DNA of 39,628 bases, taken from a virus (Duplodnaviria; Heunggongvirae; Uroviricota; Caudoviricetes). The position numbers were made by a program, and so were the translations under genes. Of this stretch, positions 1,337 to 38,203 are shown one piece after another. Within the stretch, counting starts at the first letter, position 1. Every line of letters begins with the position of its first letter. The notes under the pieces were generated by a model, which was given only the letters and a program-made list of their open reading frames with translations, was not told the origin of the DNA and ran no database searches. Location of the stretch: IMG/VR virus record IMGVR_UViG_2554235126_000004. One strand, given 5' to 3'.

Positions 1337-1451
1337 AAGAAAACTCCTGTAAACTATTTGGTTTCATTATTCCATAAAACCAAGCACTTTCAAGAGCTTA
1401 ATTTTCTTTAAATTCTGTATGCATATACAGTATCATTCAATTTTGTAAAAT

Positions 1452-2820: not shown

Positions 2821-2848
2821 TTCTTTTGCTACAAAACTATTTCACTAG

Positions 2849-3397: not shown

Positions 3398-3525
3398 TTT
3401 GTTCTCCACGTTATTTGCGCTGCACCGCACTGAATTCTGGTAAAAGGAAGCCCTCACCATCCGGAGATTATTGAGTTAATTACGTTTCCATAAATGCCCC
3501 CGCAGGGGCATTTGCAGTAATCAAA

Positions 3526-4350: not shown

Positions 4351-4415
4351 AATAAGTCCTCACTATATAAAGATATTCAGTGATGAGATAAATAATCAGT
4401 TAATTAAGAACGATA

Positions 4416-4778
4416 TTAATGACCTGCTGCGCGGAGTTTTCCGTCAGGTTCACCGGCAAGAGTCAGTAATTGTCCCTGGTCTTCCTGCAGAATAGTCAGG
4501 CGACCACCGCGATTGACATACATCGGCGTTTCGGTGGTGTCTTCTTCAGAAATTTTCCCGCGGTTAGTCGGGCGAACATATGAGAGTTTGTGTTTGATTT
4601 TCACTCGGTTCTCATCAAATGGTTCGATTTCCAGGTTGAGTGAGACCTTACCTTTGGTTTTCGTGTTCATCACACCGGAAGCGACTTCACTGAGAACTGC
4701 GCCGATTTTGGTTTCAAATACGCCGCCGTCCAGCTCCCCGATAAATGCCTGCACATCAGTACTGCGTTCGCTAGCCAT
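4416..4778 (-). CDS. YfdP-like small phage protein
   Basis: Start placed at ATG 4778 (MASERSTDV...) with GAGGAG RBS; upstream in-frame extension to 5096 is Arg/Cys-rich and non-protein-like. Confidence 0.55.
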   Translation of the reverse strand: MASERSTDVQAFIGELDGGVFETKIGAVLSEVASGVMNTKTKGKVSLNLEIEPFDENRVKIKHKLSYVRPTNRGKISEEDTTETPMYVNRGGRLTILQEDQGQLLTLAGEPDGKLRAAGH

Positions 4779-5180
4779 TTTGCTGCTCCTCATCATATCG
4801 ACCCTGCAAGGCCGATTAGTTTCTCCACAAAACAGAGAAGAACACCTGCGGTGGCAGCCGCCCGGATGGATTGAGTTATGAGCCCGTCGTCCGGTGATGC
4901 TCTTCTCTGTTTTGTAAAAAGGACGGTACCAGCCGGAAGCAAGGGTACAAGCTGGTACCGCCAAGACTACACACAGCATAAAGTTGTGGTGCCGGGTGCC
5001 TCCCGGTGCCTGGCGAAGGTTGCACACCAGGCGGGTGGGTATCCACAGAAGGTCGACTGTCAGCCTCAACCTTAACCCGCGTGCGCTGAGCAGCATTCAC
5101 CACAACGCTAAGGATTCTCTCTGGTTGAAAATACTTAGCTGTTATGTGCCTGCTTTTAGCCACATCAGGCGAGGTGGACC
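4779..5180. other. GC-rich structured non-coding region with nested inverted repeats (candidate structured RNA)
   Basis: About 400 bp without plausible ORF; 15-bp perfect inverted repeat ACAAAACAGAGAAGA / TCTTCTCTGTTTTGT (about 4828-4916) enclosing further GC-rich stems; 9-bp stem GGTACCAGC/GCTGGTACC at 4925-4959. Confidence 0.3.
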
Positions 5181-5232
5181 TGGTTATTCCCCAACAACAA
5201 GGATTCGGTTAATCTGGTTATCCCCAACAACG
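5181..5232 (+). repeat. direct repeat CTGGTTAT(T)CCCCAACAAC x2 immediately upstream of the 144-aa gene
   Basis: Copies at 5181-5200 and 5214-5232, second ends 15 bp before ATG 5247; possible regulator binding sites. Confidence 0.4.
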
Positions 5233-5246
5233 CAAAAGGAAAAGAA

Positions 5247-5681
5247 ATGTCCGGTAATATCTACACGTTGTACAAATCCCACTGTGAAAATGTTGGAAAG
5301 TATCGGGGCATTGAAATCAGTGGGGTAGTGTCATCAGTCGAAATAAGCAAAGTGGAATCAAGGGCAACATTACTTACTCTTCTGGATCTTGTCTTACATG
5401 AGCACCGGAAGAAATTCGGCACTCCCTATAATCAGTTGAATGGGAAAAAGGCTCTGGTTCACCTTATTCTGATGAAGCATCACTGGATGCCAAAACAGAT
5501 TAATGAGATGAAATTTGATGAACTTCTTCTTTCAATTCAGGATGAACTCACACTTGATAAAATAAGCGTAACCGCCCAGAAATTTTTAGATTATCGAGAC
5601 TGGAGATCACAAATTCATCACTTTGATGATTTTGACGAAAATGAATGGGATCCTAATTTGTCTGCACAATATCTAAAGTAA
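5247..5681 (+). CDS. hypothetical protein (AT-rich cargo gene, opposite strand to early-left operon)
   Basis: 144-aa ORF with AAAGGAAAAG upstream of ATG; AT-rich codon usage unlike flanking genes; 3' end overlaps convergent 68-aa gene by 29 bp. Confidence 0.5.
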   Translation: MSGNIYTLYKSHCENVGKYRGIEISGVVSSVEISKVESRATLLTLLDLVLHEHRKKFGTPYNQLNGKKALVHLILMKHHWMPKQINEMKFDELLLSIQDELTLDKISVTAQKFLDYRDWRSQIHHFDDFDENEWDPNLSAQYLK

Positions 5682-5859
5682 CATCCTGTGATAAAACCGT
5701 GATTTCCTGATCCAGTTTTTTTAAGGAGTCTATTGTTTCCTGTCGATAAGACAGCACTTCACGAAGCTGGTTTATAGCTGCCAGCTTCTTTGCCATCCAC
5801 TCGTAAATTTCCTCATTTGTGTATCCGGGCGCGACGATTTTGGGTTCTGTTTTGTGCAT
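5653..5859 (-). CDS. hypothetical small protein, first gene downstream of pL-like promoter
   Basis: Start placed at ATG 5859 (MHKTEPK...) with GAGGAGG RBS 7 nt upstream; 68 aa. Confidence 0.5.
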   Translation of the reverse strand: MHKTEPKIVAPGYTNEEIYEWMAKKLAAINQLREVLSYRQETIDSLKKLDQEITVLSQDVTLDIVQTN

Positions 5860-5901
5860 TTCACACCTCCTCAAGTTATCAGTTACTTGTTGATGGGGAC
5901 C

Positions 5902-5937
5902 AGATTGTTAAAGAGCTAAGCGTCCTGTAGGGCGCTT
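5902..5937 (-). promoter_or_regulatory. rrn-type boxA-like element (GCTCTTTAACAAT) with adjacent hairpin in the pL leader
   Basis: Minus-strand sequence AAGCGCCCTACAGGACGCTT (hairpin) followed by GCTCTTTAACAAT, matching the rrn/nut boxA consensus as recalled; on plus strand the same hairpin plus T-run could act as terminator for the 144-aa gene. Confidence 0.35.
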
Positions 5938-6026
5938 TTTTGTTGCTAACGAATCATCCTGGACTTCATATGCCCCAGGCGGCTACTTCGTGGGCGTCCT
6001 GCCTGTTTGTTGTTTCTCTTAGGTAC

Positions 6027-6054
6027 ATTATGTATCTCAAGGGTACATTGTCAA
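6027..6054 (-). promoter_or_regulatory. pL-like early-left promoter (TTGACA-N16-CATAAT) overlapping operator half-sites
   Basis: Read on minus strand: TTGACA at 6054-6049, 16-nt spacer, CATAAT at 6032-6027; GGTACAT/TGTAT operator-like repeats overlap. Confidence 0.5.
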
Positions 6055-6056
6055 GT

Positions 6057-6080
6057 ATAAAAAAACCTGCCGAAGCAGGT
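6057..6080 (-). terminator. rho-independent terminator downstream of cI
   Basis: Minus strand: stem ACCTGC/GCAGGT with 4-nt loop followed by U7 run, 14 nt after cI stop. Confidence 0.55.
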
Positions 6081-6093
6081 TCATAAACATTGA

Positions 6094-6768
6094 TTAGGCT
6101 TTGATTTTGTATCTTCTTGGTTTTCCTGAGAAAATCACAGTTCCAATTATAGAGCAATTACCGTTGATCTTAATGTAAGGCTCAGGCCAGTTTGGGTTTA
6201 ACGCTTTGAGATAACGCTGTGTCCCATCTTCTATCAACCTTTTGAAGGTGGTTTCACCTGTATCGTGCATCAATGCAATAACGTCGTCACCGTGGCAGGC
6301 AGGTACTTCAGGATCGACAAAAATCATGTCTCCCGGGCGGTACTCATCAATCATTGAATCACCTATCACCCGCAAGATATAAGTCATTTCCCCACAGGGT
6401 ACAGGGCAGGGATACGTTTCTGCTGTGCTCAAATCAACCTCAGAATATCCAACTTCTTTCCATGCTCCGGCCTGTACCCATGATATGACAGGGACTAATG
6501 TGATTTGTTTATTAGTGATTGAAACATCAGGTTTTTTTGTGATGTTCGTTGTCTGGTGTTCTTGATCGAGCCATCCGACAGGCAGGTCGAAACATTTTTC
6601 GATGTGTCGTGCCATGTTGTCACCGATATTTTTAGTAGCACCATCTCCCATAAACCTGCTGGTCTGGGTTGGCTCGCGATCAATCATAGTGGCAAAGGAA
6701 GAATTCCCGCCAACACCATCTCTCAGTTTTCTGGCGTTAGACCGCCGGATGTCATGGATTGTTTTCAT
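6094..6768 (-). CDS. CI-type prophage repressor (HTH plus S24 LexA-like peptidase domain)
   Basis: 224 aa; N-terminal HTH, C-terminal GDSM...K autocleavage-type motif; divergent from cro with operators between. Confidence 0.9.
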   Translation of the reverse strand: MKTIHDIRRSNARKLRDGVGGNSSFATMIDREPTQTSRFMGDGATKNIGDNMARHIEKCFDLPVGWLDQEHQTTNITKKPDVSITNKQITLVPVISWVQAGAWKEVGYSEVDLSTAETYPCPVPCGEMTYILRVIGDSMIDEYRPGDMIFVDPEVPACHGDDVIALMHDTGETTFKRLIEDGTQRYLKALNPNWPEPYIKINGNCSIIGTVIFSGKPRRYKIKA

Positions 6769-6783
6769 AACGAAATTAAAACC

Positions 6784-6853
6784 CTTGTACCGTTAAGGTA
6801 CAAGTATCTTGAAGGTTCATTTCAATCATGTAATATGTACACCGGAGGTACAT
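6784..6853. promoter_or_regulatory. immunity operator region (OR-like) between cI and cro
   Basis: Perfect 21-bp palindrome CTTGTACCGTTAAGGTACAAG (6784-6804) and ATGTAC-N7-GTACAT (6835-6853); same GTAC half-site recurs at the pL side (6020-6050). Confidence 0.6.
6809..6836 (+). promoter_or_regulatory. pR-like promoter for cro (TTGAAG-N16-TAATAT)
   Basis: -35 at 6809-6814, -10 at 6831-6836, 22 bp upstream of cro ATG; overlaps operator. Confidence 0.5.
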
Positions 6854-6858
6854 ATTGT

Positions 6859-7059
6859 ATGAAAGCGTATTGGGACTCTTTAACCAAAGAACAGCAGGGC
6901 GAGTTGGCCGGAAAAGTTGGCTCAACACCTGGCTACTTACGGCTGGTTTTCAATGGCTATAAAAAAGCCAGTTTTGTGCTGGCTAAAAAACTTGAGCAAT
7001 GCACGTCAGGTGCAATTACGAAATCTGACTTAAGACCGGATATCTATCCGAAAGATTAG
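6859..7059 (+). CDS. Cro-like small HTH regulator
   Basis: 66-aa ORF divergent from cI; GGAGG RBS; ORF track entry 6556..7059 is an upstream extension overlapping cI on the opposite strand. Confidence 0.75.
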   Translation: MKAYWDSLTKEQQGELAGKVGSTPGYLRLVFNGYKKASFVLAKKLEQCTSGAITKSDLRPDIYPKD

Positions 7060-7090
7060 CAGAACACTTTCAATTTTTAACCACAGAACG

Positions 7091-7660
7091 ATGAGGCTAA
7101 TCGTGGGTAAGCATCACTGGAAAGTAGAAAAACAGCCTGAGTGGTACGTGAAAGCTGTCAGAAAAACTATCGCGGCGTTGCCGGGTGGTTACGCTGAAGC
7201 GGCTGACTGGCTCGATGTAACAGAAAACGCTTTATTCAACCGCCTTCGTGCAGATGGCGATCAGATTTTCCCGCTGGGATGGGCAATGGTTTTACAGCGT
7301 GCTGGTGGCACTCACTTCATTGCTGATGCTGTGGCGCAGTCTGCAAATGGCGTCTTTGTGTCTCTTCCTGACGTCGAGGATGTGGACAACGCCGATATTA
7401 ACCAGCGTCTGCTGGAAGTCATTGAACAGATCGGCAGTTATTCAAAACAGATTCGTTCAGCAATCGAAGACGGTGTAGTGGAACCGCATGAGAAGACAGC
7501 AATTAACGACGAGCTGTATCTCTCAATTTCGAAGCTGCAGGAGCATGCAGCACTTGTCTACAAAATTTTTTGCATTTCAGAAAGTAATGACGCCCGCGAG
7601 TGTGCAGCTCCGGGCGTCGTGGCGTCGATTGCTTCTGGTTGTGGAGAAACTAACGCATGA
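7091..7660 (+). CDS. CII-like / YdaT-like regulatory protein (start may be GTG at 7103)
   Basis: Position immediately after cro as in Rac ydaS-ydaT; GAGG precedes GTG 7103. Confidence 0.45.
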
Positions 7661-7995
7661 ACAGTTTAACAACACACTACCGTCGCTCGCAACTGATTGC
7701 GCTTCCTGTACCGGGTGGAAAAGCGAAGGTGGAATATTGCTATGCAGTGAATGTACCAGGTGACAGGGAAATTGTAACCCACAGCTTTGCAGAGTGGGCT
7801 GTGGGTGATTTCAACCGGCAGAAGGAGACAGTCCTTTGCGACAAGTTAACCGCTGGTTCAAAGATCACTACGGAGTGCCCGTCAGAGTCATTCGTTGGGA
7901 GCCGGAAACACAACGGGTTATCTACCTCCGCGAAGGTTATGAGCATGAATGCTTCAGTCCGCTCGAACAGTTTCGTCGTAAATTCAGGGAAATAG
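7657..7995 (+). CDS. hypothetical protein (uncertain; see alternative small ORF 7836..8015)
   Basis: ATGA overlap with upstream stop suggests coupling, but product is not very protein-like. Confidence 0.3.
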
Positions 7996-8004
7996 AGGTC
8001 GGTT

Positions 8005-8946
8005 ATGAGCACTAAATTAACCGGTTATGTATGGGATGGTTGCGCTGCATCAGGCATGAAGTTATCCAGCGTGGCAATTATGGCCCGCCTGGCTGATTTC
8101 AGTAATGACGAAGGTGTGTGCTGGCCATCAATTGAAACCATTGCCCGTCAAATTGGCGCGGGGATGAGTACCGTCAGAACGGCTATCGCACGGCTGGAAG
8201 CAGAAGGCTGGTTAACGCGTAAGGCGCGTCGCCAGGGTAACCGCAATGCGTCGAATGTTTATCAGCTTAACGTTGCGAAGCTTCAGGCAGCGGCATTTTC
8301 TCAACTGTCAGATTCTGACCCGTCAAAATCTGACGCATCAAAATCTGACCCGTCAAAATTTGATGCGTCGAAATCTGGCAAAAAAGCGGGTTTTCACCCG
8401 TCAGAATCTGGCGGGGATCCGTCAGTAAAATCAAAACATGATCCGTCAGATAAAAAACCTTCTCGTCCGGACGCTTCGCAACCGGACACGCAGACGGATG
8501 AACAGGATTTTTTAACTCGCCATCCTGATGCGGTTGTATTCAGCCCTAAAAAGCGCCAGTGGGGGACGAAGGATGATTTGACCTGCGCACAGTGGCTCTG
8601 GAAAAAAATCATCGCCCTGTACGAGCAGGCTGCCGAATGTGACGGCGAGGTGGTTCGTCCCAAAGAACCGAACTGGACAGCCTGGGCAAACGAAATTCGC
8701 CTGATGTGTGTACAGGATGGGCGTACTCACAAACAAATCTGCGAGATGTACAGCCGCGTCAGCCGCGATCCGTTCTGGTGCCGTAACGTGCTCAGCCCGT
8801 CGAAGCTGCGGGAAAAATGGGATGAGCTTTCCCTGCGCTTATCGCCGTCCGTCAGCACGTACACCGAAAAACGCGAGGACCCGTACTTCAAAGCCAGTTA
8901 CGACAACGTGGACTACAGCCAGATCCCGACAGGATTCAGAGGGTGA
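8005..8946 (+). CDS. replication initiation protein (O-like; N-terminal winged-helix domain, repeat-rich linker, C-terminal domain)
   Basis: 313 aa; N-terminus resembles phage replication-protein HTH domains; central SDPSKSDASKSDPSKFDASKS repeat encoded by iteron-like DNA repeats. Confidence 0.75.
   Translation: MSTKLTGYVWDGCAASGMKLSSVAIMARLADFSNDEGVCWPSIETIARQIGAGMSTVRTAIARLEAEGWLTRKARRQGNRNASNVYQLNVAKLQAAAFSQLSDSDPSKSDASKSDPSKFDASKSGKKAGFHPSESGGDPSVKSKHDPSDKKPSRPDASQPDTQTDEQDFLTRHPDAVVFSPKKRQWGTKDDLTCAQWLWKKIIALYEQAAECDGEVVRPKEPNWTAWANEIRLMCVQDGRTHKQICEMYSRVSRDPFWCRNVLSPSKLREKWDELSLRLSPSVSTYTEKREDPYFKASYDNVDYSQIPTGFRG
8310..8470 (+). repeat. iteron-like tandem repeats (TCTGACCCGTCAAAA-type, CCGTCA core) inside replication gene; candidate origin
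   Basis: At least four adjacent about 15-bp units at 8313-8372 plus further CCGTCAG copies to about 8450, followed by an A-rich stretch; analogous to ori-lambda within O. Confidence 0.55.
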
Positions 8947-8948
8947 TC

Positions 8949-9437
8949 ATGAGTCTGTTAAATGACGTTCAGAAATTCATTGAAGCCCATCCGGGGTGTA
9001 CTTCCGGAGACATTGCGGATGCTTTTGCAGGTTACTCACGGCAGCGCGTTCTGCAGTCTGCAAGCAAGTTACGTCAGAGTGGGCGTGTGGCTCACCGTTG
9101 TGAAGGAGATACACGCAGACATTTCCCGCGCCTGACTGAGAGAGCGCAGGAACCGGAACCACAACCAGTTCGAGAAACCAGACCTGTGCGCAATTTCTAT
9201 GTCGGCACTAACGATCCACGGGTGATTTTGTGCCTGACCCGCCAGGCTGAAGAACTGGAGTCCAGGGGCTTATACCGTCGTGCTGCAACCGTGTGGATGG
9301 CGGCATTCCGTGAAAGCCACTCCCAGCCAGAACGAAACAATTTTCTGGCGCGTCGTGAGCTGTGTTTACGGAAAAGCAGCAAGCGCGCTGTATCGAGTGA
9401 TGAGTGGTATCTGTCAGGGAATTACGTGGGGGCGTAA
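8949..9437 (+). CDS. putative regulator (PerC-like C-terminal region, recalled resemblance)
   Basis: 162 aa; AGAGGG RBS 5 nt upstream of ATG 8949; motif LESRGLYRRAATVW. Confidence 0.45.
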   Translation: MSLLNDVQKFIEAHPGCTSGDIADAFAGYSRQRVLQSASKLRQSGRVAHRCEGDTRRHFPRLTERAQEPEPQPVRETRPVRNFYVGTNDPRVILCLTRQAEELESRGLYRRAATVWMAAFRESHSQPERNNFLARRELCLRKSSKRAVSSDEWYLSGNYVGA

Positions 9438-9763
9438 TGACGACGTTAACTCAATGCCAGCAGCAGGTGCTGGATATGCTGATTTCTTATCAGAAAGAGC
9501 GTGGCTTTCCGCCAACCAATCAGGAGGTGGCAACCATGCTGGGATACCGTTCAGTGAATGCAGCGGTAGAGCATCTTCGCGCACTGGAGAAAAAAGGCGT
9601 CATCACGATAAAGCGTGGCGTGGCCCGGGGGATAACGCTTCATACCGCGGTGAAGGACGACGACAGCGAGGCGGTCGGGATTATCCGCGCACTGCTTGCC
9701 GGTGAGGAAAACGCAAGGCTGCGTGCAACCCACTGGTTACATGAGAGGGGCCTGAAAGTATGA
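9437..9763 (+). CDS. LexA N-terminal DNA-binding-domain protein (no peptidase domain)
   Basis: 108 aa; QQQVLDMLISYQKERGFPPTNQEVATMLGYRSVNAAVEHLRALEKKGVI closely parallels the LexA winged-helix domain; TAATG overlap with upstream gene. Confidence 0.7.
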   Translation: MTTLTQCQQQVLDMLISYQKERGFPPTNQEVATMLGYRSVNAAVEHLRALEKKGVITIKRGVARGITLHTAVKDDDSEAVGIIRALLAGEENARLRATHWLHERGLKV

Positions 9764-10149
9764 AGCTGATCCTGCCTTTTCCGCCCAGCGTGAACACGTA
9801 CTGGCGACACCCCAACAAAGGGGCGTTTGCTGGTAAGAGCCTGATAAGCGCGGCGGGGCGAAAATTCCAGAGCGCAGCGTGCGCAGCAATAGTTGAGCAG
9901 TTACGTCGTCTGCCGAAACCAACGTCGGCACCTGCTTCAGTGGAGATCGTGTTGTTTCCTCCGGATAACCGGATCCGCGATCTGGACAACTATAACAAGG
10001 CGCTGTTTGACGCCCTGACCCACGCGGGTGTGTGGGAAGACGACAGCCAAGTGAAAAGAATGTTGGTGGAGTGGGGACCGGTTATCCCGGAAGGGAAGGT
10101 CGAGATCACTATCAGTAAGTACGAGAAACCGGCGGGTGCAGCCGCCTGA
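9760..10149 (+). CDS. rusA: RusA Holliday-junction resolvase
   Basis: 129 aa; PPSVNTYWRH...RDLDNYNKALFDALT...W.DD.QV matches RusA family pattern. Confidence 0.9.
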   Translation: MKLILPFPPSVNTYWRHPNKGAFAGKSLISAAGRKFQSAACAAIVEQLRRLPKPTSAPASVEIVLFPPDNRIRDLDNYNKALFDALTHAGVWEDDSQVKRMLVEWGPVIPEGKVEITISKYEKPAGAAA

Positions 10150-10168
10150 TTAAGAGGAGAAAGGAAGT

Positions 10169-10966
10169 ATGAATAATCTGATGGTAATTGATGGTATTGA
10201 AGTTCGTCGTGATGCTTATGGGCGTTACAGCCTGAACGATCTGCACAGGGCTGCCGGTTCTCTGGATAAGCATAAGCCTGCATTCTGGCTCCGCAATGAG
10301 CAAACTGAACGTTTAATAAGCGAGTTACAGATTTGCAACTCAGTCAATATAGAGCCAGTTAACGTTATTCGTGGCGGAAATAACCAGGGGACGTATGTCT
10401 GCAAAGAACTGGTGTATGCCTATGCAATGTGGATCAGCCCGTCATTCCATCTGAAGGTGATCCGTACTTTCGATATGGTAACCAGCGCACCGGAAAAATT
10501 ATCCGGACAGGCTGCTGACAAGATGCAGGCTGGTGTGATTCTGCTGGACTTTATGCGCCGGGAATTAAACCTGTCTAACTCTTCAGTGCTTGGTGCCTGT
10601 CAGAAACTCCAGGAGGCTGTTGGCTTACCGAATCTGGCACCGCGCTATGCCATTGATGCTCCTGCTGACGCGCCTGATGGCTCAAGCCGCCCCACGCTGT
10701 CACTGAGTGCACTGCTGAAGCAGTATGGTATCCGCCTGACAGCTAATCAGGCATATCACCAGATGGTGACGCTGGGGATCGTCGAGCAGCGCGAACGATA
10801 CAGCCGTACCGCGATTAACAACATCAAAAAATTCTGGTCGCTGACAGCGAAAGGCTGCATGTTCGGCAAGAATATCACCAGTCCCGCAAATCCGCGCGAG
10901 ACGCAGCCGCATTTCTTCGAATCCCGATTCCCTGAGCTGTTAAAGCTGCTCGATACCGTTCATTGA
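10169..10966 (+). CDS. KilA-N domain antirepressor-like protein
   Basis: 265 aa; N-terminal KilA-N-like region followed by antirepressor-like C-terminal region; GAGGAGAAAGGAAG RBS. Confidence 0.75.
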   Translation: MNNLMVIDGIEVRRDAYGRYSLNDLHRAAGSLDKHKPAFWLRNEQTERLISELQICNSVNIEPVNVIRGGNNQGTYVCKELVYAYAMWISPSFHLKVIRTFDMVTSAPEKLSGQAADKMQAGVILLDFMRRELNLSNSSVLGACQKLQEAVGLPNLAPRYAIDAPADAPDGSSRPTLSLSALLKQYGIRLTANQAYHQMVTLGIVEQRERYSRTAINNIKKFWSLTAKGCMFGKNITSPANPRETQPHFFESRFPELLKLLDTVH

Positions 10967-10967
10967 G

Positions 10968-11963
10968 GTGACCGTGAGAGCACTACTGACTCCTGAAATT
11001 GCCCCGCGTATGGGGATCGTATTGTTCAGGCCAGGTTCAGAGCTGATGCCCCTGTTTATGCAGGGGCGTGTCCTGCTGGAGCCTGAGCCGGAATGTTATT
11101 CATCTTTCGCCAGTGGTGCCGTTCCGGCGGCATCACAACCGCTGGTGGATGATCCTGCCGTTCGGGCCGTGTTCCGCAATGAGGCAGTGATCCGTCGTGC
11201 TGGTGGCGTGGAATGTCTTGAAAGCTGGTTACTTCGTGAAAAGGGCTGTCAGTGGCCTCATTCCGACTGGCACAGCGAGAACATTACCACAATGCGACAC
11301 GCTCCGGGCGCAATCCGTCTGTGCTGGCACTGTGATAACCAGCTGCGCGATCAGTTCACGGAACGGCTGGAATCAATGGCAACGGATAACTGTGCCCGCT
11401 GGGTGTTGTCTGTTGTGCGTCGGGATCTCGGTTTTGATTATAGTCACGTTGTGACAATGCCGGAACTGTGCTGGTGGCTGATTCGTAATGACCTGGCGGA
11501 TGCCTTACCGGAAAGTGCAGCCCGTAAGGCACTGAGATTACCGAAGCCTGTTGTGCCGTCTGTCACCCGGGAAAGTGACCTTGTGCCTTCGGTTCCTGCC
11601 ACCAGCATCATCCAGGATAAGGCGAAAAAGATGCTGGCGCTGAAAGTGGATCCGGAGTCGCCGGAGTCTTTTATGTTACGCCCAAAACGTCGCCGCTGGG
11701 TTAATGAAAAGTACACGCGCTGGGTTAAGACGCAGCCGTGCGCATGTTGTGGAAAACCTGCTGATGATCCCCACCACCTGATAGGCCACGGTCAGGGGGG
11801 AATGGGTACAAAAGCGCATGACCTCTTTGTGTTGCCTTTGTGCAGAAAGCATCACGACGAGCTGCATGCGGATACCGTGGCATTTGAAGAGAAGTATGGC
11901 TCCCAGCTGGAGCTGATATTTCGTTTTATCGATCGTGCGCTGGAAATAGGCGTGCTGGCCTGA
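10968..11963 (+). CDS. DUF968-like protein with C-terminal Cys/His HNH-like motif
   Basis: 331 aa; C-terminus CACCGKPADDPHHL...HDLFVLPLCRKHHDELH; start codon uncertain (GTG at 10968 or 10974). Confidence 0.55.
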   Translation: MTVRALLTPEIAPRMGIVLFRPGSELMPLFMQGRVLLEPEPECYSSFASGAVPAASQPLVDDPAVRAVFRNEAVIRRAGGVECLESWLLREKGCQWPHSDWHSENITTMRHAPGAIRLCWHCDNQLRDQFTERLESMATDNCARWVLSVVRRDLGFDYSHVVTMPELCWWLIRNDLADALPESAARKALRLPKPVVPSVTRESDLVPSVPATSIIQDKAKKMLALKVDPESPESFMLRPKRRRWVNEKYTRWVKTQPCACCGKPADDPHHLIGHGQGGMGTKAHDLFVLPLCRKHHDELHADTVAFEEKYGSQLELIFRFIDRALEIGVLA

Positions 11964-12386: not shown

Positions 12387-13202
12387 TTATTTCTTTTTTT
12401 TATTACTTTCAGATAATCGTTGGTTTAATGTGTATTTTATTTGGTTCCTAATCATTTTTTCAGGAATGTCATATTTGTCTAAGAATGATATTATTTCATC
12501 CTCGTCAAGCAATCCATTCTTTATAATTTCATCTATCTGTTTTTGTAGATACCAAACATCCTTCTGTTCTACAGGAGTTAAATTCATATGGCTATTTATG
12601 GAGTTGATAGTAGCATCACGTTCAAGAACTCTAATCCTTTGATTTAATGAACGAGTGTTTTGTAATATTTCAGATAAAAGATCTTGTTCAGTACGTGGTT
12701 TTACTTCTTCAGTTGGAGGGTATTGATCTAAAGCTCGTTTAAAATTGTTTTCAAATTGCTCCCAGTATGTATTAAAAACTTGCTTTAGAATACGGTCATC
12801 TAAAGATTTATCGACAAGACAATTGTTTATTGTCCTTACTAATTCCCAAACACTCTCTTTATTTGGCGTTGTGTGATTGAATTGAGCAAGTGGATCTTTT
12901 AAATCTTCTGGTTTTAAGTCAATCAAGAATGTACAAACTTTATTTGTTGAAAGTCCTTTTGCTAGTGCTCCTGTTTCAAACAAAATCCATGGTTTATTTT
13001 TATTTTCTTGTGTCAAACATACAATGCCGACAGATACATCTTTTAATTTATCATTAATTTCAGAGAACCATATAGCGCCACGATCAATATCTCTGGTTGA
13101 AATCCATGGCTGCGAAGCTTGGATAACACACTTCAGCCAGTCGCTAATAAGTTCTGCAACAGCTTGACTTCTTTGCCCAGACCAACTTATGAACACTTTC
13201 AT
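12387..13202 (-). CDS. TIR-like domain protein with uncharacterised helical C-terminal domain (candidate anti-phage defence effector)
   Basis: Start placed at ATG 13202 (MKVFISWSG...) with GGAG RBS; N-terminal pattern KVFISWS ... GIVCLTQEN ... PWILFETG (Trp/Glu motif) typical of bacterial TIR / TIR-like domains; AT-rich; opposite strand to flanking late genes. Confidence 0.6.
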   Translation of the reverse strand: MKVFISWSGQRSQAVAELISDWLKCVIQASQPWISTRDIDRGAIWFSEINDKLKDVSVGIVCLTQENKNKPWILFETGALAKGLSTNKVCTFLIDLKPEDLKDPLAQFNHTTPNKESVWELVRTINNCLVDKSLDDRILKQVFNTYWEQFENNFKRALDQYPPTEEVKPRTEQDLLSEILQNTRSLNQRIRVLERDATINSINSHMNLTPVEQKDVWYLQKQIDEIIKNGLLDEDEIISFLDKYDIPEKMIRNQIKYTLNQRLSESNKKKK

Positions 13203-13325
13203 TATGTACTCCATGTAATCACTCAAAAGGAACTGAAATTTACATTAAAAATTAAATAAAATCACTCACGCGGTCCGCAGAAACCATTGTAATCTGTTAT
13301 GAGTGGTTACTTCGCCACACAACTT

Positions 13326-14865: not shown

Positions 14866-15216
14866 ATGCCCCCCCGAACTCCAAAAGCCTGCCGCGTTCG
14901 CGGCTGCCGTAATACCACGACAGACCCGTCAGGCTACTGCGAAAGCCACAAAAGCGAAGGCTGGAAGCAATACAAGTCAGGACAATCCCGTCATCAGCGC
15001 GGTTATGGTTCTAAGTGGGATGTTATCCGCGCGCGTGTCCTGAAGCGTGACAAAGGTCTGTGTCAGTTATGTCTGCGTGCTGGTGTGGTACGTGAGGCGA
15101 AGACCGTTGACCACATCATCCCTAAAGCGCGTGGCGGCACTGATGCCGACAGTAATCTACAGAGCCTGTGTTGGCCGTGTCATAAGGCGAAGACGGCCCG
15201 TGAATGGCTGAAGTAA
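14866..15216 (+). CDS. HNH endonuclease (terminase-associated)
   Basis: 116 aa; Cys pairs and DHIIP...N...LC..CH motif; immediately upstream of small terminase as in HK97-like phages. Confidence 0.85.
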   Translation: MPPRTPKACRVRGCRNTTTDPSGYCESHKSEGWKQYKSGQSRHQRGYGSKWDVIRARVLKRDKGLCQLCLRAGVVREAKTVDHIIPKARGGTDADSNLQSLCWPCHKAKTAREWLK

Positions 15217-32808: not shown

Positions 32809-33558
32809 ATGCATCGTATAGACACGAAAACCGCGCAGAAGGATAAGTTCGGCGCGGGTAAGAACGGTTTTACCCGTGGTAACCCCCAGACCGGCACACC
32901 TGCCACCGATCTGGATGATGACTACTTTGACATGTTGCAGGAGGAGCTTTGCAGCGTGGTGGAGGCATCCGGTGCCAGCCTGGAGAAGGGGCGGCACGAC
33001 CAGTTGCTTACCGCGCTTCGTGCGCTGCTGTTAAGCCGCAAGAATCCGTTTGGCGATATCAAATCGGATGGCACGGTGAAAACGGCTCTCGAAAACCTTG
33101 GTTTGGGAGAAGGTTCTGCATTACCTGTTGGGGTGCCTGTTCCGTGGCCTTCAGCCACTCCGCCAACAGGCTGGCTGAAATGCAACGGTGCGCCTTTTTC
33201 TGCCGAAGAGTATCCGGAACTGGCAAAAGTTTACCTGACAAATAAATTGCCTGATTTACGCGGTGAGTTTATTCGTGGCTGGGATGACAGAAGAGGAATA
33301 GATACTAGCCGTAGCTTGCTTTCATCACAGGGCGATGCCATTCGAAATATAATTGGTGCATTAGTGGATGTCAGGTTCAATACCTATCCTTCTGATTCTG
33401 GCGTTTTTACAACCAGCGTCATCGGAGATGCTTCATCGGATTCAATTAAAGGTGGTTATGCAAAGCGAGTAACATTCGATGCTTCCAGAGTTGTTCCAAC
33501 TGCAAACGAAAACCGACCTCGTAACATTGCCTTTAATTATATCGTGAGGGCTGCCTGA
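32809..33558 (+). CDS. tail fibre protein (constant N-terminal part plus currently expressed variable C-terminal part with tail-collar-like domain)
   Basis: 249 aa; crossover site at 33086-33111 lies inside the gene at codons ...ENLGLGEG; C-terminal region shows composition change. Confidence 0.8.
33086..33111 (+). other. Gin/Pin/Hin-type inversion crossover site (left)
   Basis: CTCTCGAAAACCTTGGTTTGGGAGAA fits the recalled hix/gix pattern ...AAACC-NN-GGTTT...; inverted copy at 34931-34956 shares 14 identical bp. Confidence 0.65.
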
Positions 33559-34166
33559 TGAATAAAGTTGTCTTAAATAACGAACTCATTGCCATAAAAG
33601 CTGGAGACATAACCGTTTATAATTATAATGGTGAAACGCGGGAATATATTTCCACATCAACAGAATATCTTGCCATTGGTGTAGGCATTCCGGCATGTTC
33701 CTGTTTAGATGCTCCAGACTCATACAAAACTGGTTATGCAATTTGCCGTTCTGAAGATTTTAACTCATGGGTATATGTGCCAGACCATCGTGGTGAAATT
33801 GTCTATAGCACTGAAACAGGAGAATCAAAAGAAATCACAGCTCCGGGTGATTACCCTGATAATACAACCACTATCGCCCCGTTAACGCCATACGATAAAT
33901 GGGATGGTGAGAAATGGGTGACGGATACCGTGGCACAGCATAGCGCCGCAGTAGATGCAGCAGAAGCACAGCGCCAGTCGCTGATTGATACTGCAATGGC
34001 CTCCATCAGTCTGATTCAACTGAAATTACAGGCCGGACGGAATCTGACGCAGTCAGAAACCAGCCGACTTAACACGGTGCTGGATTACATTGACGCGGTA
34101 ACGGCAACAGATACCAGCACCGCGCCGGATGTCATCTGGCCTGAACTGCCGGAGACTGCGCAATAA
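33558..34166 (+). CDS. tail fibre assembly protein (Tfa)
   Basis: 202 aa; C-terminal region ...LDYIDAVTATDTSTAPDVIWPELP matches conserved Tfa C-terminus. Confidence 0.85.
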   Translation: MNKVVLNNELIAIKAGDITVYNYNGETREYISTSTEYLAIGVGIPACSCLDAPDSYKTGYAICRSEDFNSWVYVPDHRGEIVYSTETGESKEITAPGDYPDNTTTIAPLTPYDKWDGEKWVTDTVAQHSAAVDAAEAQRQSLIDTAMASISLIQLKLQAGRNLTQSETSRLNTVLDYIDAVTATDTSTAPDVIWPELPETAQ

Positions 34167-34335
34167 ACTCACCATCAATATATAAATCCCCCTGCTGTGT
34201 GTCAGCAGGGCATTCTTTCCATATTAATGATGGATGGAATCTTCCTTCAGGATTAATTTCCGTTATCTCTTCTACTTTATTTTCTTCAATTCTTGCCCAC
34301 ATATGAACCTCACCAGTAAATATAAACTGCGCCAT
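34132..34335 (-). CDS. short alternative tail fibre assembly-like ORF (Tfa', expressed only after inversion; possibly truncated)
   Basis: 67-aa ORF starting at ATG 34335, directly after S'v stop, inside invertible segment; ORF track entry 34132..34560 is an upstream extension. Confidence 0.35.
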   Translation of the reverse strand: MAQFIFTGEVHMWARIEENKVEEITEINPEGRFHPSLIWKECPADTQQGDLYIDGEFIAQSPAVQAR

Positions 34336-34984
34336 CTGCTCCGGCACCCGACTGACCCGTTGATGAATTAGGACATAATCCAGCACCGCCACCTCCAGGC
34401 CCAACTGCTGATACCGCTTTTCCGTTAGCTGTATCTCTGAATGAACCTGCTCCTCCGGGGCCACCACCAGAACCACCATTACCAGCTCCCGATGCGGCAG
34501 ACGCAATGGAACCTGGAGAACCTGGCCCAAGCGATGTATTAATTGTTCCCCCAACACCAACTGCGCCTAACCCTCCGGAAGGCTGGCCTCCGCTATAGCC
34601 TCCGGAAGCTGACATGTAAGTCCCGAAACTGCTCGAGCCACCATTTTTACCGTTTACAGAAATACCAGACACAGGCGCACCACCGGCACCAACCGTAATC
34701 GAAACACTGTTAATACCAGTTAAATCTACCAGTCCCTCAGCAACTCCGCCCCCACCACCTCCTCCGCCACATGTAACGGCTGAAGCGGTTATTGAACCTA
34801 TCCCTCCTGACGCACCGCCACCAATAACTTTGACGTAACATTTTCTTCCTTTGCGCAACTCTTCAGGAACAGTCCAGCTTGTTACTCCAGCCGTTGTGAA
34901 GGCAACTAGATTTCTGAACCCAAATGAGCCTTCTCCCAAACCAACGTTTATGAAAATGCAGAAATAACGAGCAAATGGCATCAT
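34310..34984 (-). CDS. alternative tail fibre variable C-terminal segment (S'v, Gly-rich); silent in current orientation
   Basis: Gly-rich ORF on minus strand whose 5' end runs through crossover site (codons GLGEG identical to constant part); no own start expected. Confidence 0.6.
   Translation of the reverse strand: MMPFARYFCIFINVGLGEGSFGFRNLVAFTTAGVTSWTVPEELRKGRKCYVKVIGGGASGGIGSITASAVTCGGGGGGGGVAEGLVDLTGINSVSITVGAGGAPVSGISVNGKNGGSSSFGTYMSASGGYSGGQPSGGLGAVGVGGTINTSLGPGSPGSIASAASGAGNGGSGGGPGGAGSFRDTANGKAVSAVGPGGGGAGLCPNSSTGQSGAGADGAVYIYW
34931..34956 (-). other. Gin/Pin/Hin-type inversion crossover site (right)
   Basis: TTCTCCCAAACCAACGTTTATGAAAA; inverted orientation relative to 33086-33111. 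Confidence 0.65.
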
Positions 34985-35011
34985 TCCTGCTTTTACTTGG
35001 GGGGATTTAAC

Positions 35012-35203
35012 ATGCTTATTAGCTATGTACGCGTATCAATAAATGACCAGAACACAGATCTACAACGTAATGCGTTGAACTGTGCAGGATGCGAGCTGAT
35101 TTTTGAAGACAAGATAAGCGGTACAAAGTCCGAGAGCCTAGGGCTGACAGTGCTGTTCTTGATGCAAATTAAAGGATTTAATAGTGAGTTGCGGCCTTAC
35201 TAA
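35012..35203 (+). pseudogene. serine invertase (Pin/Gin family) 5' fragment, truncated after about 45 conserved codons
   Basis: MLISYVRVSINDQNTDLQRNALNCAGCELIFEDKISGTKSE matches invertase N-terminus including catalytic Ser region, then diverges and stops; full invertases are about 190 aa. Confidence 0.75.
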
Positions 35204-35214
35204 TGTAAGGCCGC
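35191..35214. other. perfect 10-bp palindromic hairpin at junction between invertase fragment and restriction-gene island
   Basis: GCGGCCTTAC-TAAT-GTAAGGCCGC; lies between the two convergent genes; no strong U-run on either strand. Confidence 0.3.
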
Positions 35215-35236
35215 TATAATCATTTTATTAATTGCA

Positions 35237-37126
35237 TTAATCGTATTTTGGCCATACTTTCAATGCAATTTCCCCCAACTTTTTACCTCGCTCCAGTATT
35301 TCACTCTCATCCCATTTATCCTTAAGTATAAGTGGTATGTTCAGTCGTAGATTGGTGTGGACGATGAGAGCATCACGTTTTTTCAGAAATACAGCATTCT
35401 GAACGGAACGGTTTACGCTAAGGTTAAGCAAAGTTAGATTTCCCAACGTAGCTATCGCTTGTTGCCGTTTCCTTACCAGTAGCTGTTCAGGGGTAAGATC
35501 GGTTCCAGACAGAACAATTTGGTTCATTACCGTAGCATCTGAATTTGTCACCATATGACCATTTTCGAGAGGCCAACAGGAATACCAACTTTGAGGCATA
35601 AGATGATCGATATCGAGATTAGAAAGATTTGGAACATCAGGCTTTTCTGTCTTCACTTGGCGACAAAGTTCTCTTTCAAGTTCCGTTAACATTGAGCGCA
35701 TTTTCGGTGCGTCGAGCCTGCCAGGATAAAGTGGAGCATTGATGCAAGCGTTGAGAAATTCTGAGTCCCCAGGCCAACGTGAGGCTTCGCCATTTAAGCT
35801 ATTGAGGATATTACGTAACTCAACACTGGAAATTTCCGTTTTAGACAAGTGTCGCAATACATTCATAAATACATTGTTGTAATTCTTTGGCGTCAGGCCA
35901 CATACGGATCTTCGTACTACGTAGGAGACAAGATCATTATACATGGCTGCTTTCTCATCATCGGCGATGTTAGCTATCGAAATGAACAAAGCAAGCGGAT
36001 AGAGTGTCGTCACATCATAGGCTGCGATGCGATGTCCAAAGTGTGAGATGGGGGTTGTGCCAAAACCACCAACCAATTCTTTATATTGTGATGCATATTG
36101 TTTGAGGCGCTTTACTTGCAGATCTGCTCGTTGTGAAGGCAAGTCCTTACTTACATAATCACGATACTCATTGTAAAGGCGAGACAGATCAATTTCACGC
36201 TGCCTTTCTGATTGCAATGTCGCATGTACAAGCCACTCCATGCGTGGTTTATTAATACGTCCACGGCGTTGCTTTTCCGACCAGTATTTATCTTCAAAGA
36301 TCTTCCACTCATTTTCATATAATTCAATAGCATTAATATTTTCATGCTCAGCGCACATAAAGATATAGTTGCGAATAAGATCCGTTGCATGAAGTTCCGC
36401 TCCTCGCCCATTTAATGTTTCAAAAATTATTTGGGCATCATCTTCAGCTTCGAGAAATATGCTTACCAGTTTCAGATCCGTCAAGACAGCCTCAATTAGT
36501 GCTACAGCATTTTCTTGTGGTGAGTGGTTTTCTATTTTAATCCATTTTATAAAGGCTTCAGTAAAAAACCATAATGCCTCTAGTGACGGCGGGTGGTTGA
36601 AATGTTTACGTAACGTACCATGTTGCGTGAAGCTATCAGAAAATACATTACGGAGATCGTCAATATTATCAACATTAAGACTTTGAATAAAATGAGTTTG
36701 ATCTCGAAAAGTTGGCCACAGTTTGAAGCATTCTACCTTTTTATTTCTCATCGTTGCTTCGTTTGTATTTTTCAAGCAAGTCAATACTAACCCTTCCAGT
36801 TCAGAAAGGCCTGTAGCACGCAATGATAATCGAATGGATGCCAGAATATATTGAAGAGTGGTTAAACGTTGCTGGCCGTCAATAATATGTATGGTATCTA
36901 CACCTAACAAGCTGTTTTTGAGTTGAGGTTCCAGCACCACCGCGCCGAGGAAATGAGGGGTTGGTTTTGTTCCCGAAAGTCGGCTCTGTGCTTTTTCGAA
37001 GATATCCTCCAGCAAAGCTGACCATTGGTTTCGTTGCGTCCATACGTAGGCACGTTGATAGAATGGAACACGATATTGTCGTTGATTTTGGAAAATTTGC
37101 TGGATGGTTAGCGTTTCGGATTTCAT
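35237..37126 (-). CDS. GmrSD-family type IV restriction endonuclease-like protein (DUF262 N-terminal, DUF1524 His-Me finger C-terminal)
   Basis: 629 aa; N-terminal FYQRAYVW and IIDGQQRLTTL (DGQQR) motifs; C-terminal ...DIDHLMPQSW...GNLTLLNLSVNRS; AT-rich. Confidence 0.8.
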   Translation of the reverse strand: MKSETLTIQQIFQNQRQYRVPFYQRAYVWTQRNQWSALLEDIFEKAQSRLSGTKPTPHFLGAVVLEPQLKNSLLGVDTIHIIDGQQRLTTLQYILASIRLSLRATGLSELEGLVLTCLKNTNEATMRNKKVECFKLWPTFRDQTHFIQSLNVDNIDDLRNVFSDSFTQHGTLRKHFNHPPSLEALWFFTEAFIKWIKIENHSPQENAVALIEAVLTDLKLVSIFLEAEDDAQIIFETLNGRGAELHATDLIRNYIFMCAEHENINAIELYENEWKIFEDKYWSEKQRRGRINKPRMEWLVHATLQSERQREIDLSRLYNEYRDYVSKDLPSQRADLQVKRLKQYASQYKELVGGFGTTPISHFGHRIAAYDVTTLYPLALFISIANIADDEKAAMYNDLVSYVVRRSVCGLTPKNYNNVFMNVLRHLSKTEISSVELRNILNSLNGEASRWPGDSEFLNACINAPLYPGRLDAPKMRSMLTELERELCRQVKTEKPDVPNLSNLDIDHLMPQSWYSCWPLENGHMVTNSDATVMNQIVLSGTDLTPEQLLVRKRQQAIATLGNLTLLNLSVNRSVQNAVFLKKRDALIVHTNLRLNIPLILKDKWDESEILERGKKLGEIALKVWPKYD

Positions 37127-37936
37127 TGTTTACCTATAAATAACATTAAGTGACATTCCACAAGAGTAAGAAATTCATCTGAGTCAGAACAATCATTTTT
37201 ATGTAGTTATGATACAGTGTATTTGTTACTGGTGAAGTAAAAATAAGAAACCCCGCTTTTGAATGCTGACGCGCTACGGTTTCATTGGATATTTTTTGTC
37301 TCTCCTCCATCCCGTTGGTGTTCTGTTTAGAATGATAACTTGCTGTTTTTATTGATATTAGTTTATTGCGCCGCCCAATCATGGTTGGTGGGTTGGTGGG
37401 AGTTAAATCCACATTGGTATGAATAACATAGAATATGAATTAGTGTTTCAGAATTGCTTCAGCCATCACTTTTTAATACGTTCAATTTGAATGTTTATTT
37501 CCGAAACAATTTTTTCAGGTTTCAGTCCCTCGTTAGATTGCACAAAATCTCTAATTTGCATCATTCGATGTGCACAAATTTATAATTCGCTATAAACACT
37601 TAGCTCGTCAGATTCATTTTGAGATTGTTCACCTATTTAAAATTCTACATAAGTATGTGGCGGATTGTGATAAACACGAGAAATCGGGGTTGGCCACCAT
37701 TCCTCACCGGTCACTACGTCCGCATCGAATAGTACAGTTTTGTCAATTTCCATTAATTTCTGGATAAGAACAGAAGTTTTCAAGCGAACCTCCATTTGGC
37801 CATAAAGTGGTTATCAAAACGCTACGTAAACTATACAAAATCAGCGAGTTATGGTGAAGGTAAAAAAACAAGTTTAGATGTTCGTTAAGCATAAAATTGT
37901 TTTAATTCAATTGGATATAATAATTTTCTAAATCTA

Positions 37937-38101
37937 ATGTTACGCCATATGGGCTGGACTGAAGCCGCAGACTTGATTGTTAAAGGTATGGAAGGCGCAA
38001 TCAATGCGAAGACCGTAACCTATGATTTCGAACGTCTGATGGAAGGTGCTAAACTGCTGAAATGCAGCGAGTTTGGTGATGCGATCATCAAGAACATGTA
38101 A
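37937..38101 (+). pseudogene. icdC: icd (isocitrate dehydrogenase) 3'-terminal fragment at prophage/chromosome junction
   Basis: Translation [54 protein letters not shown] matches the Icd C-terminus as recalled; no upstream icd coding sequence. Confidence 0.8.
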
Positions 38102-38124
38102 TTACTACATGTGTTAAATATTGT

Positions 38125-38156
38125 AACGGGCGTATAACACGCCCGTTGTTTTATTT
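38125..38156 (+). terminator. rho-independent terminator following icd fragment
   Basis: Stem AACGGGCG/CGCCCGTT, 7-nt loop, followed by GTTTTATTT. Confidence 0.75.
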
Positions 38157-38203
38157 ATGTGGATATTATTAATATCATGTCGAGAATATTTATATGAAGG
38201 CCA

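Follow-up and report, generated by a model that had tools for sequence, protein, structure and literature searches.

How did a complete restriction gene come to stand directly against a broken tail-fibre invertase gene at the end of a prophage, and what would it do there? The question is raised by positions 35012-37936 of a 39,628-nucleotide stretch of a tailed virus genome (Caudoviricetes; IMG/VR record IMGVR_UViG_2554235126_000004), which was analysed over its whole length and is called the window below. A first-pass annotation had proposed that a GmrSD-like type IV restriction gene replaced the 3' part of the invertase gene. Judged by its sequence, the restriction protein is the founding GmrSD itself. 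We consider it highly probable that the locus is best explained by GmrSD as cargo that is expressed in the lysogen and lies at the tail-fibre end of a myovirus prophage of the e14/SfII-like kind in icd, which would have arisen via one old junction and a swap of integration modules, with inversion of the tail-fibre segment in trans.

The gene in question is the following.

35237-37126, minus strand: gmrSD, encoding a 629-aa single-chain type IV modification-dependent restriction endonuclease (RefSeq WP_000834396.1).

The first-pass annotation had described a 629-aa DUF262/DUF1524 protein with a DGQQR motif and a His-Me finger, and a search with the profile hidden Markov models of Pfam recovered both domains: GmrSD_N (DUF262, PF03235; 1.7e-33), which is ParB/Srx-like, at residues 8-256 and GmrSD_C (DUF1524, PF07510; 3.8e-19) at residues 451-619. 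The DGQQR motif, defined as near-invariant in DUF262 (PMC4619093), is found at residues 83-87 within IIDGQQRLTTL, and D507, H508 and N522 of the His-Me motif, for which the family pattern is (D/E/H)HxxP with an Asn further downstream, are all present, so that the catalytic motifs are intact on alignment. C517, N528 and N535, which are partially dispensable, are kept too, as are the ExEx4ExK block (residues 271-280; E271/E273/E278/K280) and all seven cysteines of the characterised GmrSD enzymes. The PADLOC mREase_IV model PDLC03655 matched the protein from end to end (1523 bits, 1-629 of 629), which pointed to an enzyme listed in REBASE. Supplementary Fig. S1 of PMC4437046 prints Eco94GmrSD, UTI89GmrSD and EcoCT596GmrSD, the last in its resequenced, single-chain form; these sequences were rebuilt from the figure and compared with the window protein.

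EcoCT596GmrSD: one difference (L611 in the window, Q in CT596).
Eco94GmrSD: one difference (R316 in the window, H in Eco94).
UTI89GmrSD: 43 differences.

The identity to CT596GmrSD and to Eco94GmrSD is thus 628/629 in each case, and both variant residues, R316 and L611, are in the state seen in the other of these two active enzymes. All three proteins share the length of 629 aa, the DGQQR and ExEx4ExK motifs, D507-H508-N522 and the seven cysteines. EcoCT596GmrSD is the prototype GmrS/GmrD of Bair & Black 2007, as cited through PMC4437046 and PMC4619093. Because the window protein is one residue away from each of two characterised enzymes, its sequence identifies it as the prototype GmrSD, more than a GmrSD-like relative. 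The earlier wording, a GmrSD/BrxU/SspE-like type IV enzyme, was correct in the type IV DUF262/DUF1524 assignment and understated the identity.

This identity is not visible in the present databases. RefSeq names WP_000834396.1 a DUF262 domain-containing protein, and no NCBIfam model matched GmrSD. The exact protein was seen on at least 1000 contigs and belongs to a 1185-member cluster at 90%. A sequence search of the PDB with GmrSD returned only a distant DUF262 protein (9jfl, 4.7e-07) and no close structure. The GmrSD family's first structure is that of BrxU (PMC8565348). BrxU and SspE have the same two-domain DUF262-DUF1524 architecture and the same nucleotide-regulated nuclease logic as GmrSD, but their sequences are only distantly similar; the matches of the PADLOC SspE models to the window protein, for instance, were between 1e-10 and 1e-15 and limited to the N-terminal ~100 aa. 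Moreover, BrxU and SspE are embedded in BREX or Ssp systems, whereas the window GmrSD stands alone in a prophage.

The biochemistry of the enzyme has been described for Eco94GmrSD (629 aa, WP_000834395), characterised by He et al. 2015 (PMC4437046). It cuts T4 DNA, which contains glucosyl-5-hydroxymethylcytosine, and T4gt DNA, which contains 5-hydroxymethylcytosine, while lambda DNA is hardly cut (PMC4437046). Mg2+ or Mn2+ is required, and ATP, dATP and dTTP strongly stimulate cleavage whereas gamma-S-ATP does not (PMC4437046). Its preferred target is a pair of modified cytosines, one on each strand, at a distance of 17-23 bp, between which it cuts; activity was abolished in D507A, H508A and N522A (PMC4437046). 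In vivo, T4 delta-ip1 was restricted 10^6 to 10^7-fold (plating efficiency 10^-6 to 10^-7), whereas wild-type T4 was restricted merely 15-20-fold by the reference GmrSD because it injects the inhibitor IPI* (PMC4437046). Over-expression of GmrSD was toxic in recA cells (PMC4437046). For BrxU, an ATP-driven dimer-to-monomer cycle was reported (PMC8565348).

Given its near-identity to the characterised enzymes, the window GmrSD is predicted to recognise phage DNA that contains glucosyl-5-hydroxymethylcytosine or 5-hydroxymethylcytosine and to cut it with the C-terminal His-Me nuclease (D507-H508-N522). Nucleotide binding at the N-terminal DUF262/ParB-like (DGQQR) domain would stimulate cleavage, and T-even phages would be excluded unless they inject an inhibitor such as T4 IPI*. 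We infer that nucleoside triphosphate-stimulated cleavage, restriction of T-even phages and inhibition by IPI* carry over to this allele.

UTI89GmrSD (UTI89_C2960) is the most distant of the three reference enzymes. It has the same 629 aa, the same junction with the invertase remnant and the same phage family as the window copy, but it is reported as insensitive to IPI* (PMC4437046) and its 43 differences are concentrated in codons 1-210. The divergence between UTI89-type and CT596-type gmrSD follows the same pattern at the DNA level (window 35237-37126 versus L017 4329-6218), with a third-position identity of 67-74% in codons 1-210 versus 93-98% elsewhere in the gene. This suggests that the N-terminal region is recombinant or diversifying, perhaps linked to differences in sensitivity to phage inhibitors.

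On its other side, gmrSD faces the remnant of the invertase gene.

35012-35203, plus strand: pin', an open reading frame (ORF) of 63 codons with ATG at 35012 and stop codon at 35201-35203, remnant of a Pin/Gin-family serine invertase.
35191-35214, between the convergent pin' and gmrSD: hairpin with a 10-bp G+C-rich stem, GCGGCCTTAC-TAAT-GTAAGGCCGC.

In the program-made ORF list, pin' starts at an upstream TTG at 34997. Codons 1-41 are identical to K-12 PinE at 39/41 positions (differences G4S and T10I, the latter at the residue adjoining the catalytic serine), and the DNA up to 35134, the end of codon 41, is ~96% identical to pinE. In tblastn the likeness reached residue 49 (35158) and was weak past codon 41; from there to the stop at codon 63 the sequence is unrelated. 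A match to Pin/Gin of about 45 codons followed by divergence had been noted before, and the alignment with the K-12 pinE and mcrA loci bears this out, with both the truncation of pin' and an mcrA-equivalent slot visible. A complete serine invertase comprises a catalytic domain of ~140 aa and a C-terminal helix-turn-helix, ~184-190 aa in all. The window copy lacks most of the catalytic domain and the entire DNA-binding domain, and the Pfam Resolvase profile matched only with its N-terminal positions 2-54 of 145. RefSeq labels the stump as a partial recombinase, pseudogene, and no NCBIfam model matched it. G4S and T10I are private to the window's lineage when compared with the S3 and UTI89 copies, which fits a decaying pseudogene.

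The pin' stop codon sits in the loop of the hairpin, which is kept in the S3 and UTI89 copies. Its folding energies are -22.7 and -19.7 kcal/mol (z = -5.4 and -4.8). The hairpin probably serves to end transcription; a consensus terminator scan, whose results stayed at chance level, did not flag it.

The same junction between pin' and gmrSD was found well beyond the window. Complete E. coli genomes contained the window stretch in identical form in 54 cases and the full icd-type arrangement in 54-55. Among the matches listed, the pin'-gmrSD junction was 100% identical in 14 complete genomes. With few point changes it also occurs in the S3 prophage beside paoD (pao locus) and in the ssrA-integrated prophage of UTI89. 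The cassette 35148-37353 was present in 306/5426 complete E. coli genomes (5.6%), distributed over identity bands as follows.

At least 99% identity: 56 genomes.
95-99% identity: 30 genomes.
90-95% identity: 219 genomes.

All near-full-length matches of the cassette (298/298) start at query base 1-4, which is the junction. Since the same junction is found across icd, ssrA and pao prophages and in ~300 genomes, the economical reading is that the truncation is one old, inherited scar from a single ancestral event. Recurrent independent insertions into pin were considered and rejected, because the junction is essentially the same, with few point changes, across the allele groups. The first-pass proposal that gmrSD replaced the 3' part of the invertase therefore stands as to the replacement, but this was not a recent event at this locus, as the old scar is found at three integration sites. 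In the proposed course of events, one old illegitimate recombination would have removed invertase codons ~50-184 and whatever lay downstream, and gmrSD would have arrived or been fixed at that time. The cassette of pin', hairpin, gmrSD and upstream region (~35135-37353) would since have been inherited and exchanged among icd, ssrA and pao sister prophages.

In some genomes IS200C lies beside the cassette or IS3 within it. Such insertion sequences in places split gmrSD into separately annotated DUF262 and HNH genes.

The position of gmrSD in the prophage was compared with that of mcrA in K-12 e14. The right end of the window is given by the following feature.

37937-38101, plus strand: icd', the duplicated 3' end (54 codons) of the isocitrate dehydrogenase gene, forming the right end (attR) and followed by iraM.

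The region from icd' to iraM is 92% identical to the icdC-iraM region of K-12. The window integrase shows 93.8% amino acid identity to e14 IntE, with 86.6% identity of the int-xis DNA. With int/xis of the e14 type and icd' beside iraM, this is an e14-type prophage at icd; the window stops short of the left junction. In K-12 e14 the gene order is ymfQ, stfP, tfaP, tfaE, stfE', pinE, mcrA, icdC, iraM, and in the window it is ymfQ, stf/tfa invertible segment, pin', gmrSD, icd', iraM. The sequence of strain 1190 matches the window at 100%; its annotation lists, in order, baseplate J, ymfQ, tail fibre, tfa, invertible part, partial recombinase, DUF262 protein, partial icd and iraM. DNA similarity between window and e14 ends at 35147 and resumes only at 37927. 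The gene order together with this break in similarity places gmrSD in the slot where K-12 e14 has mcrA, as had been anticipated. That gmrSD is prophage cargo agrees with its place in this slot, its orientation convergent to the late operon and its low GC content (cassette 40% versus 52% in the prophage core).

Like GmrSD, McrA of e14 is a type IV modification-dependent HNH nuclease located between the tail-fibre invertase and icd'. However, the McrA protein is unrelated to GmrSD outside the HNH idea and targets methylated cytosine. In e14, mcrA is co-directional with an intact pinE and the right arm is different, whereas the window gmrSD is convergent to the stump. Two tblastn matches of mcrA in the window, at 15022-15213 and 11751-11936, are unrelated prophage HNH genes and no mcrA remnants.

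The cargo at the corresponding place in related elements is as follows.

K-12 e14: mcrA.
Sister prophages of ECCHD184 and 90-9281: intact 555-bp pinE, followed by a LEM-3-like GIY-YIG gene (PD-T4-3) in convergent orientation.
8GC, a further prophage at icd: PD-T4-3 with an m5C methyltransferase and a type II endonuclease, all lying between a gene for tail-fibre assembly and icd'.
S3: gmrSD, then a type ISP/IIG restriction-modification enzyme.
UTI89: gmrSD, a DinI pseudogene, a LEM-3-like GIY-YIG (PD-T4-3-type) gene and two hypothetical genes, then ssrA.
Phage vB_EcoM-606R2 (L009 3082-4246): a different invertase stump of 104 aa, abutting a convergent 281-aa gene of unknown type.

The GIY-YIG gene of 8GC matched PADLOC PD-T4-3 at 7.6e-140. 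The first-pass annotation had suggested an exchangeable defence site and a comparison of prophages at icd for alternative cargo, and 8GC indeed carries PD-T4-3 with a type II restriction-modification system instead of gmrSD. Across the related prophages the same flanks enclose mcrA, PD-T4-3, PD-T4-3 with type II restriction-modification, gmrSD with type ISP restriction-modification, or gmrSD with PD-T4-3, as in a defence-cargo hotspot. The stump of vB_EcoM-606R2 indicates that the 3' end of an invertase was lost to cargo more than once.

Between gmrSD and icd' lies a spacer (37127-37936) that had been described as about 800 bp of AT-rich non-coding DNA. Its 810 bp have a GC content of 34.4% and hold no intact conserved gene, in agreement with that description, but the spacer is not plain: it is a composite in which DNA from upstream of gmrSD is joined by a fossil attachment core of ssrA, the broken remains of a 113-codon gene and the icd arm.

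37127-37353, minus strand: upstream (promoter/5') region of gmrSD, which travels with the gene in sister prophages.
37292-37412, minus strand: fossil ssrA attachment (att) site, consisting of the decayed last ~27 nt of the transfer-messenger RNA gene (ssrA/tmRNA; 37386-37412) and ~90 nt of adjoining phage arm.
37443-37795, minus strand: pseudogene of a 113-codon gene, with two in-frame stops and a frameshift; the gene is intact in the 8GC icd prophage.

Positions 34930-37391 match S3 and 34930-37353 match UTI89, with identities of 83% and 67%, respectively, in the gmrSD upstream region. The part from 37292 to 37936 is shared at 88-90% with the 8GC prophage, which carries different cargo. In 8GC the ssrA-like copy reads GTGGGTTCAACTCCCGCCAGCTCCACCAA, compared with GCGGGTTCAACTCCCGCCAGCTCCACCAA in K-12 ssrA, and a 26-nt run is identical to the 3' end of ssrA. 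The window copy (37292-37410) matches UTI89 attL, located directly after ssrA (L017 519-636), at 73%, and an attR-like UTI89 copy (L016 13142-13254) also at 73%; the core match of the fossil extends to 37412. The 8GC copy of core and arm (L003 5941-6118) is 95% identical to the UTI89 prophage ends (to the ssrA-proximal end). ARAGORN detected no tRNA or tmRNA in the window and three comparison loci, and a search of Rfam at E <= 1 gave nothing relevant at the ssrA-like element, so the element is a fragment, recognised by alignment only. The pseudogene matched the 8GC gene in tblastn with 86% identity (E = 2e-64); the intact 8GC protein had no match in Pfam, PADLOC or PHROG.

The prophage of UTI89 sits at ssrA, with PD-T4-3, the DinI pseudogene and the two hypothetical genes between gmrSD and the att site. 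Positions 2888-11127 of the window are 97-98% identical to this prophage, yet int/xis is of the e14 type. The simplest account of this combination is a module swap, in which a UTI89-type phage would have given up its module for integration at ssrA and taken an int/att module of the e14 type for icd. The fossil att core beside gmrSD would be a leftover of that exchange.

Upstream of the stump, the tail-fibre genes carry a switch.

33093-34949: invertible tail-fibre (P/G-type) segment, bounded by 24-nt inverted repeats at 33093-33116 and 34926-34949.

The repeats are 92% complementary and contain the crossover sequence of K-12 e14, TTGGTTTGGGAGAAGG / CCTTCTCCCAAACCAA, known from PMC12529663. In S1-SRL-01-C and SW4848 exactly 33093-34949 was found inverted (L005 1668-3524 and L006 1665-3521, respectively), with a segment identity of 99.9% and flanks that are 99.9-100% identical to the window and carry the same protein accessions. 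Both orientations lead to an intact tail-fibre ORF, the alternative fusion being an intact 312-aa glycine-rich tail fibre. Among the matches listed, the window orientation was present in 5 genomes and the signature of the flipped orientation in 18, two of which were verified. Like the Gin/Pin/Hin/Cin switches, the window thus has two inverted 24-nt crossover sites, with a core identical to that of the e14 P segment, flanking two alternative tail-fibre C-termini, each with its own assembly genes, and the start of the invertase gene adjoins the right crossover site. In contrast to these switches, the window invertase is a stump of 49 residues, so that any inversion needs catalysis in trans.

As the stump is older than the divergence of the three allele groups, the inversions took place without the prophage's own invertase. 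The switch was most likely flipped by invertases encoded elsewhere, acting in trans. In K-12, production of the Qin prophage's PinQ leads to inversion of the e14 P segment in trans (PMC12529663). The Fis-dependent enhancer of hin spans 65 bp at a distance of ~100 bp from a hix site (PMC3798978). By analogy, an enhancer would here fall within the first ~130 bp of the invertase gene. Of pin, the initial 123-147 bp survive in pin', reaching to ~200 bp from the centre of the site, which leaves room for a hin-like enhancer of 65 bp, and the enhancer region may have been retained as well. The stump was better conserved relative to UTI89 than all gmrSD third positions (p = 0.004). It was not better conserved than the adjacent C-terminal 210 codons of gmrSD (p = 1.0), which serve as the local neutral control; the advantage vanishes because the divergence is concentrated in the N-terminal third of gmrSD.

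From this a wider idea can be drawn, which we put forward tentatively and regard as rather doubtful: stump and crossover sites may keep the cis part of the switch together with its Fis enhancer, with inversion outsourced to co-resident prophages, so that an end of ~4 kb would join switch and GmrSD, and the ssrA fossil would mark the junction of the int/att and cassette swap. If true, this ~4-kb prophage end would combine a trans-driven tail-fibre/receptor-blocking switch with GmrSD restriction of T-even DNA.

A 224-aa glycine-rich ORF (34310-34984, minus strand) starts outside the invertible segment, beside the pin' leader, and reads into it. It mirrors the stfE/StfE2 arrangement of K-12; its variable part is unrelated to that of K-12. 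The inverted K-12 stfE/StfE2 form was reported to block T2 adsorption (PMC12529663), and a receptor-blocking switch of this kind has been reported for PinQ and e14 against T2.

A number of observations speak against the explanation of the locus as expressed GmrSD cargo with an inherited junction and a switch driven in trans. In K-12, deletion of pinE locks the segment at native PinQ levels (PMC12529663), and the same pattern as by inversion would result if homologous recombination with a related phage had replaced the segment. The hairpin has no clear U-tract on the gmrSD strand. At the DNA level no record in the phage collection contained gmrSD, the only matches being to the pin 5' end; hence no ancestral phage with intact pin plus gmrSD was found. 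The combination of R316 and L611 differs from both assayed enzymes. In a promoter consensus scan nothing rose above chance, including a promoter-like site at 37236-37209, so expression of gmrSD in the lysogen is an assumption. Finally, the 93% identical UTI89 enzyme is inactive in vitro and has a different phage range, restricting neither T4 nor T4 IPI- (PMC4437046), which indicates that small sequence changes can matter and is the main reason for residual doubt on the window allele. Together with the toxicity of over-expression, which could select for silencing, the last points could be taken to mean that gmrSD is intact yet inert or shifted in specificity in this strain, owing to the R316/L611 combination, low expression or a missing partner, and that the locus is a relic and no working defence. 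We consider this unlikely, since the ORF is full-length in ~298 genomes, every mutationally defined catalytic residue is present, and the single substitutions separating the protein from each of two active enzymes both occur in an active enzyme.

Two further explanations concern the origin of the junction. In one of them, gmrSD belongs to a self-mobile element, be it an insertion sequence, an integrative island or a satellite, whose own site-specific machinery brought it into pin, with the ssrA-like core as its att site. The low GC content would fit this, as would the ssrA 3' fragment 260 bp upstream of gmrSD and the 80%-identical homologue in Enterobacteriaceae bacterium B14 (L010 5168-7890), which is located 760 bp downstream of tRNA-Phe in the same direction. 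However, no integrase, transposase or other recombinase ORF, terminal repeat, target duplication or flanking repeat beyond chance was found between 35135 and 37936 in the window, and the ssrA-like core is single, with no second copy at the pin' side. The core and arm are explained as the own att site of the ssrA-integrated sister prophage of UTI89, where moreover 3.8 kb of other cargo separate gmrSD from ssrA. An autonomous element is therefore very improbable. The other explanation attributes the truncation of the invertase to faulty sequencing or assembly, with a corrected frame giving full Pin, and has only the abrupt loss of similarity in its favour. It was refuted, its chance being negligible: no match to PinE residues 50-184 was found by tblastn in any frame of the whole 39.6-kb window, RefSeq marks the gene as partial, and the junction recurs in ~300 genomes including the independently sequenced UTI89. 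A junction common to hundreds of genomes excludes such an error.

The B14 homologue lies outside any recognisable prophage tail module. A scan of genome contigs for GmrSD returned two loci only, B14 and a Nitrospira metagenome-assembled genome, too few for a survey of contexts.

The literature already describes the enzyme with its substrate, catalytic residues and inhibitor (PMC4437046), and it also places gmrSD directly downstream of the tail-fibre genes in a prophage that is curable or SfII-like (PMC4437046). For CT596, the nearest neighbours of gmrSD are tail-fibre-assembly and invertase ORFs of a phage (PMC4619093, citing Bair & Black 2007). In the accessible parts of the GmrSD literature (PMC4437046, PMC4619093) we found no statement of the icd location, of the invertase as a 49-residue stump with a fixed junction, of the homology to the e14 mcrA slot with interchangeable cargo, of the fossil ssrA att core or of the switch in both orientations. 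The stump junction, the slot homology, the ssrA fossil and the two-orientation switch are modest comparative-genomic additions to a known system, and knowledge of the GmrSD enzyme itself is unchanged by them. In practice, the annotation of a DUF262 domain-containing protein in RefSeq can be upgraded to the prototype GmrSD, present in 5.6% of complete E. coli genomes, which bears on the prediction of resistance to T-even phages, for instance in phage therapy. The locus is also a worked example of prophage ends as hotspots of defence cargo, with one fixed junction, three integration specificities and interchangeable neighbours, in which the gain of cargo can cost a phage its own invertase while the switch keeps flipping.

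Other loci in the prophage may add to its cargo. At 12387-13226 on the minus strand, antisense to the surrounding early/late genes, a 279-aa TIR-domain protein is encoded (Pfam TIR_2 4e-07; PADLOC candidate TIR-TM 1.9e-57; phrog_13899), which may be a second defence cargo gene. Left of the integrase, the ORFs 1-465 and 440-1336 (minus strand) had no match in Pfam, PADLOC or PHROG. In K-12 e14 this side, from attL to intE, holds ymfD, ymfE and the Lit protease. Positions 1-1336 form a second variable cargo slot with uncharacterised genes; the window stops short of attL. At the other end, Rfam gave a sub-threshold match to tpke11 at 38106-38175 (23.7 bits against a gathering threshold of 43), in the same place as the terminator hairpin of icd (38123-38149).

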